DNA from: an uncultured Pelagibacteraceae bacterium
Lineage (GTDB): Bacteria; Pseudomonadota; Alphaproteobacteria; Pelagibacterales; Pelagibacteraceae
NCBI GenBank assembly: GCA_902634935.1
Contig: CACPMF010000006.1
Location: 521 to 64,520 of the forward strand
Reading direction: 5' to 3'
Length of the DNA: 64,000 nucleotides
The first letter of the stretch is position 1. The number at the start of each line of letters is the position of its first letter. Positions 3,089 through 44,267 of this stretch are shown piece by piece. The notes beneath the pieces are model-generated. The model was given only the letters and a program-made list of their open reading frames with translations, was not told the origin of the DNA and did no database searches. Position numbers and translations under genes: made by a program.

Positions 3089-3714
3089 GGCTTAGGTATT
3101 TCAGAATTTTTGTCTAAAAATTTATAACCTTTAACTACTGCTGGTCGATCGGCAATACGAATGTACCAATCACAAAGATTATTATAATTTTTTATACCTA
3201 TATCATGCCATTGATGTCTTGCTATCCATGGCCAAGTTGCAATATCAGCAATTGAATAATTTTCTCCTGCAAGATAATCATTTTTTGATAAATGATTTTC
3301 TAACACTTCGTATACTTTTTTTGTCATTTCAAAATATCTCTTTTCACCAACTTCACTTAATCCTTTATTAAATTTATAAAAGAAGTGATATTGACCAATA
3401 AAAGGACCGATTGACCCCATTTGTGCCATAAGCCATTGATCAATTTTAAGTTTATTTTTTTTTTCGTAAAATTTTCCACTTTTTTCAGCAAGGTAAATTA
3501 ATATGGCGCCAGATTCGAACACACTTTCTTTATGGTTTGAATGATCAATAATGGCTGGTATTTTTGAAAAAGGACTTATTTCTTTAAAATCTTCTTTGAA
3601 TTGGTCTCCTTTAGATAAATCCATTTTTCTAACAGCATATTCAAAACCTATTTCTTCAAGCATAATGCTTATCTTTTTTCCATTAGGCGTATCAGATGAG
3701 AAGAGATCAATCAT
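3085..3714 (-). CDS. Glutathione S-transferase, YfcG/Nu-class-like
   Basis: TPNGKKI, SKIPAI, FESGAILIYLAEK, YSIADIATWPW. Confidence 0.9.
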   Translation of the reverse strand: MIDLFSSDTPNGKKISIMLEEIGFEYAVRKMDLSKGDQFKEDFKEISPFSKIPAIIDHSNHKESVFESGAILIYLAEKSGKFYEKKNKLKIDQWLMAQMGSIGPFIGQYHFFYKFNKGLSEVGEKRYFEMTKKVYEVLENHLSKNDYLAGENYSIADIATWPWIARHQWHDIGIKNYNNLCDWYIRIADRPAVVKGYKFLDKNSEIPKP

Positions 3715-39010: not shown

Positions 39011-39097
39011 TTTTTAATACAATTTTCAATAGAAAATAAACAATGAAAATCTCATATGAGACTTTTATAAATGCTATTTTTAGATTGAAATAATTAG

Positions 39098-39455
39098 TGC
39101 CAGATAAACTATAAGCCGGGTTCTGTCGTTTAAACTTATCATTTATCTAGGCTTTAAATCACTTTAAAGCTCAAGCAACTAACCCTGATGACTAGCCAAA
39201 GACTGCTTTTAGTTATTTCTAACAATGTCATCTCTACTCAGTCTTGCTCTCAGTGGGGTTTTCCATGCGCTAGCTGTTACCAACTTAGCCGGTGTGCTCT
39301 TACCACACCTTTTCACCCTTGCCTTGATAAGGCGGTTTATTTTCTGTGGCACTGTCCCTGGGGTCTCCCCCGCCAGTCGTTAACTGGCACTGTGTCTTTG
39401 TAGAGCCCGGACTTTCCTCTTTAATTTATTAAAGTGATAAGTCATTTATCTGGCA
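39098..39455 (-). ncRNA. rnpB: RNase P RNA (bacterial type A)
   Basis: GAGGAAAGTCCGGGC, AGTGCCACAGAAA, GGGTGAAAAGGTGTGGTAAGAGCAC, ACAGAACCCGGCTTA; terminal P1 helix TGCCAGATAAA/TTTATCTGGCA. Confidence 0.97.
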
Positions 39456-42215: not shown

Positions 42216-42292
42216 TGGTGGGCCCGCCAGGACTCGAACCTGGGACCAATACATTATGAGTGTACTGCTCTAACCAACTGAGCTACAGGCCC
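42216..42292 (-). tRNA. tRNA-Ile2 (CAT, lysidine-modified)
   Basis: GGGCCTG TA GCTC AGTTGGTTA GAGC A GTACA CTCATAA TGTAT TGGTC CCAGG TTCGAGT CCTGG CGGGCCC A CCA; acceptor stem resembles alphaproteobacterial Ile2 rather than Met. Confidence 0.9.
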
Positions 42293-42354: not shown

Positions 42355-42429
42355 TGGTGGGCCGTGTTGGTTACGCTCCAACTACCCCTGCAATGTCAAT
42401 GCAGTACTCTACTATTGAGCTAACGGCCC
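42355..42429 (-). tRNA. tRNA-Val (GAC) with non-canonical D and T loops
   Basis: GGGCCGT TA GCTC AATAGTA GAGT A CTGCA TTGACAT TGCAG GGGTA GTTGG AGCGTAA CCAAC ACGGCCC A CCA; all four stems pair and CCA is encoded. Confidence 0.9.
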
Positions 42430-42431
42430 AA

Positions 42432-44267
42432 TTAGCTTTCTAGGAAACTTTTTAATTGTTTAGATCTGCTTGGGTGTTTCAACTTTCTTAATGCTTTTGC
42501 CTCAATCTGTCTAATTCTTTCTCTGGTGACTGAAAATTGCAATCCTACCTCTTCTAAAGTATGATCAGTATTCATTCCAACACCGAACCTCATTCTTAAA
42601 ACTCTCTCTTCTCTTGGTGTTAAAGTTGATAAAATTTTGGTAGTTGCTTCACTTAAGTTAGATTTTATCGCTTGTTCTAATGGTGCTAGAGCTTTTGTAT
42701 CTTCAATGAAATCTCCCAAACTACTATCCTCTTCGTCCCCAACTGGTTTTTCTAATGATACTGGCTCTTTAGAAATTTTAAGAACTTTTCTAACTTTTTC
42801 TAATGGCATTCTTAATTTTTTAGCCAACTCTTCAGGTGTTGCCTCTCTTCCAAATTCACTCAAAATCAACCTTTGTGTCCTCACTATTTTATTGATTGTC
42901 TCAATCATATGAACTGGTATTCTAATTGTTCTCGCTTGATCTGCAATTGATCTTGTAATTGCCTGTCTAATCCACCATGTTGCATAAGTTGAAAACTTAT
43001 AACCTCTTCGATATTCAAATTTATCTACCGCTTTCATCAAACCTATATTTCCCTCTTGGATTAGGTCTAAAAATTGCAAACCTCTATTTGTATATTTCTT
43101 AGCAATTGAAATTACTAATCTTAGATTAGCTTCAACCATTTCCTTTTTTGCAATTCTAGATTCTTTCTCACCTTTTTGTACTCTACTAACCAATTTTTTA
43201 TAATCTGTTACTGAAATTCCAAGTTTATGACTTATTTCAATAAGTCTTTCTCTAATATTTTTAAACTCATCTTTATTTTTTTGAAAAAATTTTTTCCACA
43301 CTTCATTTGTATCTAAAAAAATTTTTAGATTAGGATTTATTTCATTCCCGATATAAAATTTAATGAATTCGTCTCTAGTTATTTTAGCATCAATTGCAAG
43401 TCTAAGAAGGTTTCCCTCAAGAGAAATAATTTTTTTATTTTCCACATAATGTTTTTGTACCAATTCCTCTAATACAGATGGTGATAACTGAAGTGATTTA
43501 ATATTTTCTAAAATATCATCAACAATTTTTTTATAATTTTTTTCTTTTGAGCTTGAAAAAACTTGTGTGTTTAAAATACAATCAAGTTTTTCTTTTTGAT
43601 ACTTAATAAGCTTATTGTAATCTTTTGTAAGATTATGAATTGTTTGCAATACTTTTGGTTTTATTTCAGTTTCCATTGCAGCCAAAGTAGGATTAAATTC
43701 GTCATCCTCGCTTGAATTTGTGCTCTGTTCTTCTCCTTCCTCATTGCCAGTGTCAGATTTTTTTTGTTTAGCACTTTGGCCTGTATCCTCATCTTCCATG
43801 TAATTCGTATCGATGTCTATGATTTCTCTTACTAAAATTTCATCATTCTGAAGTTTTGTATTCCACTCAAAGAATTGTTGAGCTGTAATAGGACTCTGGG
43901 AAAGCGCATTAAGCATTACGTCTTTACCAGCTTCTATCCTCTTTGCTATTGCTATCTCGCCTTCTCTGGATAAGAGTTCCACACCTCCCATCTCTCTAAG
44001 GTACATTCTAATAGGATCATCACTTTTTTCTATAGTTTTTCCCTCTTCTTTAGATGAAGGGTCTTTTTTTTTTAAAATTTTATAGTCGGATTTTTTTTCT
44101 ACTAAAATAATACTCTCATTTAAAATATGAATAAATGCCTGTTCTAGATTTTCGTTTGAAAGATTTCTTTTTCCCAAAGATTTGTTTAATTCTTCATAGG
44201 TTATAAAACCTCTATGGATACCTCGACCCATAAGTCTTGCAAATGATTTAGTAATTATTCGTTCCAC
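42432..44267 (-). CDS. rpoD: RNA polymerase primary sigma factor
   Basis: [52 protein letters not shown]. Confidence 0.98.

Follow-up and report, generated by a model that had tools for sequence, protein, structure and literature searches.

A tRNA-Val(GAC) gene with an altered elbow lies downstream of rpoD

The window, that is, the whole stretch of DNA that was analysed, comprises 64,000 nucleotides (nt) of contig CACPMF010000006.1 (assembly GCA_902634935.1) from an uncultured Pelagibacteraceae bacterium. It carries a transfer RNA (tRNA) gene, tRNA-Val(GAC), at 42355..42429 on the minus strand (75 nt, encoded CCA included), in which a set of near-universal elbow bases is replaced. An original prediction, made from the sequence alone, had described the gene as a natural tRNA with a jointly rewired elbow and had named ARAGORN as a check; ARAGORN called tRNA-Val(GAC) at 42355-42429 (-). 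The Rfam model RF00005 scored the gene at 53.6 bits (gathering score 29), and the minimum free energy fold was exactly the cloverleaf (-28.6 kcal/mol, z = -3.74 versus shuffles).

The acceptor stem GGGCCGU/ACGGCCC forms seven Watson-Crick pairs and is followed by U8 and A9. The D stem GCUC/GAGU consists of a G10-U25 wobble and three Watson-Crick pairs, the anticodon stem is CUGCA/UGCAG, the T stem is GUUGG/CCAAC, and the discriminator A73 precedes CCA. The anticodon GAC (42395..42397, minus strand; ARAGORN and Rfam) is placed within the loop UUGACAU, with U33 and A37. Thus, the paired stems and the encoded A73-CCA that had been claimed were borne out by sequence, ARAGORN and Rfam. The molecule has the features of a bacterial class I tRNA, namely stems of 7, 4, 5 and 5 base pairs, a 7-nt anticodon loop with U33 and a purine (R) at position 37, and a discriminator followed by CCA.

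The unusual bases are found in two loops, D and T, and for these every base call of the original prediction was right. The D-loop AAUAGUA (A14 A15 U16 A18 G19 U20 A21) occupies 42410..42416 on the minus strand. It is as long as the AGUGGUA loop of the canonical orthologue, so that A18 (42413) and G19 (42412) could be assigned position by position. The T-loop AGCGUAA lies at 42371..42377 on the same strand (A54 at 42377, G55 at 42376, C56 at 42375, G57 at 42374, U58 at 42373, A59 at 42372 and A60 at 42371). A48 (42383, minus strand), the final base of the variable region GGGUA, stands opposite A15. The core bases U8, A14, A21, G19, C56, R57 and the pair G53-C61 are all present, and they are invariant in the relatives. 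The near-universal G18, U54, U55, A58 and pyrimidine (Y) 60 are replaced by A18, A54, G55, U58 and A60. G18, T54 (5-methyluridine), pseudouridine 55 (psi55) and A58 are textbook tRNA invariants. All 25 other tRNAs found by ARAGORN in the assembly, the canonical tRNA-Val(UAC) included, have a canonical UUCRANY T-loop.

The gene is flanked by rpoD (42432..44267, minus strand; 611 amino acids, from the open reading frame list, 81-92% identical to RpoD homologues in relatives) and by a canonical CAU tRNA, probably tRNA-Ile2, at 42216..42292 on the minus strand (ARAGORN), 62 nt downstream of tRNA-Val(GAC). The CAU tRNA had been described as canonical, and with 72.7 bits in Rfam and a UUCRANY T-loop it indeed is.

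The alternative tRNA-Val(GAC) is conserved and under purifying selection

In the following, g1 denotes the genus of the window genome, f1 its family and f2 the sister family; G and L numbers denote genomes and loci. The gene was present in 31 of 36 sampled g1 species. A Val(GAC) pattern with a free T-loop, applied to 401 genomes of the order, matched 256 of the 274 g1 genomes. Among the first 30 related loci fetched, the 75-nt sequence was 100% identical in 23, and the remaining copies kept both loops and had their stems changed in a compensatory manner. The g1 T-loops among the matches listed were AGCGUAA and rarely AGCAUAA; this A57 variant occurs in the published genomes G220 and G101 and in the unpublished G146. 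The D-loop was AAUAGUA in all listed species except two, with AAUAGAA and AAUAGUU in one species each. In the g7 species G252 the D-loop AAAAGUA is combined with the T-loop AGCGUUA, and T-loop variants among the relatives are limited to AGCAUAA and AGCGUUA.

When nine variants were aligned, 189 of 189 stem cells were paired. Both sides had changed in 15 of the 21 stem pairs, compared to 7.2 ± 1.5 in shuffled and 1-4 in slid controls. The replacement of four near-universal bases and an Rfam score below that of the neighbouring tRNA could be taken as signs of a decaying pseudogene or an assembly artefact. A private mutation or assembly error is ruled out by the identical sequence in many independent assemblies, closed genomes included, and a pseudogene by conserved loops, compensated stem changes and the lack of relaxed constraint; we regard such an origin as vanishingly improbable. 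The original prediction had likewise argued against a decaying pseudogene, and would have been contradicted by private or randomly varying substitutions; in the orthologues collected here the substitutions are fixed.

tRNA-Val(GAC) as the probable decoder of GUY codons

The complete genomes G013 (100%) and G063 (99%) each contain exactly one Val(GAC) gene, of the alternative type, and one canonical Val(UAC) gene. A 75-nt pattern of the canonical Val(GAC) was found in none of 201 genus genomes, while the same pattern recovered all six known canonical genes. Canonical Val(GAC) genes occur at other loci in g5, g6, g8, g9 and f2. Within g5, genome G061 carries only a canonical Val(GAC) and G062 only the alternative type, which indicates that the two types are mutually exclusive and replace each other. 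Among the valine codons of the window genome GUU accounts for 50.8% and GUC for 6.2%, together 57%. Fixation in the genus, the position as sole GAC gene and the 57% share of GUY codons point to a working GUY decoder.

The sequence also fits recognition by valyl-tRNA synthetase (ValRS). The valine identity set consists of the major elements A35, C36 and A73, the minor elements G45 and G20, and a regular acceptor helix without G.U at pairs 3 or 4 (PMC9976931). A35, C36, A73, G45 and an all-Watson-Crick acceptor stem are present; position 20 is U, likewise in the canonical orthologue. The T stem, which includes the region contacted by EF-Tu, is the same as that of the canonical f2 orthologue. Very probably, tRNA-Val(GAC) receives valine from ValRS and serves the ribosome in reading GUU and GUC.

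A specialised tRNA that donates valine to another pathway would be the valine counterpart of the staphylococcal non-proteogenic tRNA-Gly species. These cell-wall donors lack the T-psi-C signature, have weakened EF-Tu binding and are extra copies beside the proteinogenic isoacceptors. The tRNA of the window is instead the only gene with its anticodon in the complete genomes and has a canonical T stem; a canonical second copy was found in 0 of 201 genomes. A role outside translation would be conceivable because Val(UAC) could cover all valine codons. Against it stand the sole, mutually exclusive GAC gene, the demand from GUY codons, the T stem shared with the canonical orthologue and the presence of the same elbow in many anticodon families (see below), and we consider it very unlikely. 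Other special roles, such as nuclease resistance or phage integration, are likewise speculative, and the evidence favours ordinary GUY decoding.

The elbow consists of two separable modules

A class I tRNA pattern with U54 G55 C56 and an unconstrained D-loop was matched in 212 of the 401 order genomes, all of family f1. The matches were mostly tRNA-Phe, but also tRNA-His (g5), tRNA-Thr(GGU) and one Val(GAC) allele. Among the matches listed, A18 G19 was present in 150 of 150 U54 G55 C56 tRNAs and GG in none. None of 341 family genomes had the reverse combination, A18 with U54 U55 C56, in a search whose pattern geometry was verified. Examples of A18/G55 with U54/A58 kept are G063:C1:631577-631629, L049, L051, L064:1729-1805 and G013:C1:1131488-1131541. 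Within the genus tRNA-Phe toggles between G18/U55 and A18/G55; the tRNA-Phe of the window genome is canonical. Outside the family U54 G55 C56 was found in 2 of 397 other alphaproteobacterial genomes, once in a tRNA-Trp with A18/G55 and once in a tRNA-Pro with G18/G55.

The sole Val(GAC) gene of G288, a g1 genome, is an intermediate with A18/G55 in which U54/A58 is retained. The swaps at 18/55 and 54/58 occur separately, which defines two modules. An obligate joint rewiring is ruled out, as each module also occurs alone. The 'jointly rewired' elbow of the original prediction is hence correct in that both swaps are present here, but the modules can be separated, as seen in tRNA-Phe, -His and -Thr, in G288 and in 21 phage tRNAs with A54/U58 only. 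The covariation that had been proposed at three sites was found at 18/55 and 54/58, both in the bacterial family and in phage tRNAs, but not at 15/48. Position 48 is A in all alternative-type Val(GAC) genes, while position 15 is A or U; a compensatory 15/48 pair is not supported. Canonical relatives have G.U, U.A, A.C or G.C at 15/48.

The same elbow is present in phage tRNA arrays

tRNA arrays with precisely this D-loop/T-loop module came to light in two scans of viral contigs, in the second of them in at least 100 stretches. Among 530 unique well-formed tRNAs in viral loci, 354 were canonical, 52 had A18/G55 only, 46 had both swaps and 21 had A54/U58 only. The phage tRNAs with an A54/U58 T-loop, nearly all of which also have A18 G19, cover at least 16 anticodons, and the elbow pattern thus recurs across many tRNA identities. 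When all species-representative genomes were scanned, leaving out Val by design, assemblies of Verrucomicrobia, Saccharibacteria, Solobacterium and Mollicutes proved to have the full module in tRNA arrays.

For an unselected set, tRNAs matching the scan patterns were removed, leaving 501 phage tRNAs, related sequences included. At 18/55, G/U was present in 369, A/G in 72, A/U in 10 (mostly doubtful D-loop assignments) and G/G in one. At 54/58, U/A was present in 444, A/U in 39, A/A in five and U/U in one. Position 60 was a pyrimidine in 431 of the 444 U54/A58 tRNAs and a purine in 33 of the 39 A54/U58 tRNAs. Position 60 therefore follows 54/58, and A60 of the window tRNA belongs to the 54/58 module, just as A60 accompanies A54 in eukaryotic initiators (PMC7912444). 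In nature the elbow appears to follow two rules: 18/55 carries either G/U or A/G, and 54/58/60 carries either U/A/Y or A/U/R. The replacement bases co-vary as expected of isosteric tertiary pairs, which suggests that the shape of the elbow is constrained and its sequence is not.

Several tRNA-like genes with the full elbow, Thr GGU-like and Pro UGG-like, were not called by ARAGORN (L099, ~2390-2470; L101, ~3160-3240; L105). Gene finders under-score such tRNAs, as illustrated by the 53.6 bits of tRNA-Val(GAC) versus 72.7 bits of its neighbour and by the genes missed in phage arrays. Separately, some phage tRNAs (L112, L123, L156 and others) appear to exchange the outer elbow pair too, with C19 in the D-loop (e.g. 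AGCGCAUA) and G56 in the T-loop (UUGGAAU), which suggests 19/56 covariation in phage tRNAs. In Microcoleus (L201-L203, L207, L208, L210, L211, L214, L224, L228, L231 and L233) the module pattern was found at a conserved site in many species and was not called by ARAGORN; this site may represent a tRNA-like element, or its conservation may be due to chance.

The phage data raise the question of origin. Phage tRNA-Val genes have the same D-loop, the same GGUA end of the variable region and the same T-loop as the window tRNA. In addition, Val(GAC) occupies five different loci across the order. It lies downstream of rpoD only in g1, its neighbour in G062 and in G252 is tRNA-fMet, and three further sites hold the canonical and intermediate genes. 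In five other genera the CAU tRNA directly follows rpoD, with no Val gene in between. Positional orthology with the Val(GAC) of the sister family was rejected, since the rpoD adjacency is specific to this genus. The G062 copy, although from another genus, is identical to one allele of g1. The shared loops, the changing loci and the G062 copy would fit a lateral acquisition of the alternative Val(GAC), ultimately from a phage tRNA set, with the native canonical gene being displaced by it. However, even the most similar phage Val tRNAs reach just 65-75% identity to the window tRNA, mostly in the loops, and the data do not support any of the sampled phages as a recent donor. Moreover, the G288 intermediate fits stepwise evolution in the cell lineage, and the T stem is that of the canonical gene of the sister family. 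A phage-derived replacement is thus possible, but we consider it doubtful.

TruB is deleted and other known enzymes of T-loop modification were not found

TruB (TIGR00431) was found in 8 of 8 g5, 8 of 8 g6, 4 of 4 g7 and the one f2 genome tested. The unpublished G345 is among the eight g6 genomes, and the result is independent of it. TruB was not found in any of 91 g1 genomes (≥90% complete), 14 g8 genomes or two g9 genomes. In g6 the operon reads infB-rbfA-truB-rpsO-pnp (L088, G072). In three g1 genomes, one g8 genome and one g9 genome the order is infB-rbfA-rpsO-pnp (L092-L096: G152, G190, G064, G063 and G013). This confirmed that truB is cleanly deleted in g1, g8 and g9. The infB-pnp region is unassembled in the assembly of the window, and its truB status was read from complete relatives. 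Searches of five near-complete genomes, drawn from both families of the order, yielded no TrmA-type enzyme and no TrmI; the sole TrmFO matches in them were partial, MnmG-like and far below the cut-off.

With TruB deleted and TrmA, TrmFO and TrmI not found, no tRNA of the genus would carry 5-methyluridine (m5U) 54, psi55 or 1-methyladenosine (m1A) 58 by known enzymes. The original prediction had stated that tRNA-Val(GAC) cannot carry m5U54, psi55 or m1A58. This is true, but it does not distinguish the molecule, since the enzymes were not found in the lineage either. Where no enzyme uses U54 and U55, one reason to keep these bases is removed. In genera lacking TruB, 207 of 316 genomes had U54 G55 tRNAs, versus 5 of 81 in TruB-bearing lineages, figures that reflect few independent events; tRNAs with G55 and with A54 are also found alongside TruB. 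The freedom of the T-loop sequence appears linked to the loss of T-loop modification enzymes.

The bases U54 and U55 are also targets. It is known from phage T5 that anticodon-loop variant tRNAs evade tRNA-cleaving defences. For the T-loop, a comparable defence has been described: the anti-phage Schlafen nuclease CbCash cuts tRNAs mainly between U54 and U55, and a single mutation of U54 or U55 abolishes cleavage (PMC13462974). A54/G55 in tRNA-Val(GAC) removes this required site. The A54/G55 T-loop may accordingly have been retained as an escape from T-loop nucleases, enzymes or phage factors that read the UUC/U-turn site, and the tRNA for the commonest valine codons would survive an attack fatal to canonical tRNAs. 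Such selection would explain fixation and would be compatible with a housekeeping function. For phages, whose tRNA arrays are enriched in the full module across many anticodons, host-nuclease escape is a plausible selective force. In the genome of the window only one tRNA is changed, and the protection of a single tRNA cannot rescue translation; no T-loop nuclease of this kind was found here, where no search aimed at one was made; furthermore, the drift-like toggling of tRNA-Phe within the genus looks neutral. Adaptive escape is therefore an unlikely reason for fixation in the bacterium. The design nevertheless suggests how tRNAs could be made uncuttable by T-loop-directed nucleases.

A probable alternative isosteric elbow in a housekeeping tRNA

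We conclude, with a probability of about 0.85, that tRNA-Val(GAC) is a housekeeping elongator tRNA with an alternative isosteric elbow, fixed in the genus, in a lineage without known enzymes that need U54 or U55. In such an elbow A18.G55 would substitute for G18.psi55, and A54.U58 together with purine 60 would substitute for T54.A58 and pyrimidine 60. The outer G19-C56 pair and purine 57 would be retained. As these are kept and the new contacts are predicted to be isosteric, the L-shape and the stacking surface for RNase P and the ribosome should be preserved. The alternative elbow may have become possible, or neutral, where no enzyme needs a U54/U55 substrate. The data themselves establish the sequence, its conservation and covariation, the sole copy, the codon demand and the loss of the enzymes; aminoacylation, ribosomal use, the three-dimensional geometry and a causal role of the enzyme losses are what we infer. 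Fixation among relatives and covariation support the natural, functional alternative elbow with G19-C56 kept that had originally been proposed.

Several observations weigh against this conclusion. Genome G148 (g7, 99% complete) has no Val(GAC) of either type by covariance model, only Val(UAC), and all four valine codons could in principle be decoded by a Val(UAC) whose U34 is unmodified or of the cmo5 type. Taken together, it may be that the Val(GAC) gene is not strictly required. Related sequences are among those counted for covariation, so that the statistical support is overstated. The trans Watson-Crick/Hoogsteen family to which U54.A58 belongs is asymmetric, and A54.U58 cannot copy its geometry exactly. 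Finally, G55-type tRNAs also occur where TruB is kept (tRNA-His in g5, tRNA-Val in g7 and G062), which means that TruB loss was not a precondition. As to the lineage of G148 itself, its UAC tRNA may read all four valine codons.

The closest relatives of the molecule are the canonical Val(GAC) tRNAs of f2 (G037/G040), g5, g6, g8 and g9. They share the length of 75 nt, the arm lengths, U8, A14, A21, G19, C56, R57, G53-C61, the UUGACAU loop, A73-CCA and the GGGU start of the variable region; the f2 T stem GUUGG/CCAAC is identical. The tRNA of the window differs from them by A18 for G18, A54 for U54, G55 for U55, U58 for A58, A60 for Y60, A48 for U48 and A15 for G15, and by its locus.

The 18/55 exchange has a laboratory precedent. 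Functional synthetic suppressor tRNAs with a 'specific purine trap' were reportedly selected in vivo from libraries with randomised D- and T-loops by Zagryadskaya, Doyon and Steinberg (NAR 2003). In these, the identity of purine 18 is said to depend on position 55, with G18 required by U55 and A18 by G55. The same A18/G55 rule, with purine 57 kept, was found here (150 of 150 among the matches listed; A18/U55 in 0 of 341 genomes). The synthetic tRNAs are reported to be laboratory constructs that keep U54-A58, whereas the molecules described here are natural housekeeping and phage tRNAs in which A54-U58 and R60 are swapped in addition. The standard U54-A58 is absent from the window tRNA and present in the G288 allele and in the tRNA-Phe, -His and -Thr of the family.

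A natural precedent for A54 is the T-loop of the eukaryotic initiator with A54, A60 and an A54-A58 pair, the only A54 exception named in a review of T-loop conservation (PMC7912444). The initiator shares A54, purine 60, C56 and G57 with the window tRNA. It keeps psi55, G18 and (m1)A58, whereas the window tRNA is a bacterial elongator with G55, A18 and U58. The tRNA arrays of large uncultivated phages contain an identical D-loop/T-loop module, but as accessory copies, compared to a single-copy chromosomal housekeeping gene here. The elbow goes unmentioned in the study of SAR11 tRNAs by Amrine et al., and full-text searches of the literature brought up no account of A18/G55 or A54/U58 in natural tRNAs.

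The gene thus encodes a new natural variant of a known molecule in a lineage without known T-loop modification enzymes. A valine tRNA without G18, T54, psi55 and A58 would have to serve a free-living bacterium that has a single tRNA gene for each anticodon. The two modules turn up independently in further tRNAs of the family as well as in phage tRNAs covering at least 16 anticodons, which suggests a general second way to build an elbow. We tentatively extend this to a wider proposal, which we hold to be less probable than its negation: A18.G55 with A54.U58.R60 might be a general second elbow architecture that needs no T-loop modification and is unreadable by enzymes and nucleases recognising U54-U55. 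It would circulate in phage tRNA sets, and in SAR11 it would have taken the place of a housekeeping tRNA in parallel with TruB loss and with no recognisable TrmA, TrmFO or TrmI. If this were true, some of the most abundant cells of the ocean would translate with wholly unmodified T-loops and with one tRNA lacking four 'universal' bases, and they would offer a natural system in which to ask what purpose the universal T-loop serves.

A probable transcription unit with rpoD, and RNase P

The rpoD stop codon ends 2 nt ahead of the 5' end of tRNA-Val(GAC) (window 42430-42434), and this spacing makes co-transcription likely. No promoter or terminator signal above shuffled background was detected between rpoD, tRNA-Val and the CAU tRNA. 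As the tRNA starts 2 nt after the rpoD stop, cleavage by RNase P at its 5' end would set the 3' terminus of the rpoD message. An insert of ~0.9 kb separates tRNA-Val from the CAU tRNA in G013 (locus L023), compared to 62 nt in the window. The minus strand of the window also encodes, at 39096-39453 and 3 kb from tRNA-Val, an RNase P RNA of canonical type A that scored 292.5 bits. The G19-C56 stacking surface that is read by RNase P RNA is kept in the variant tRNA-Val.
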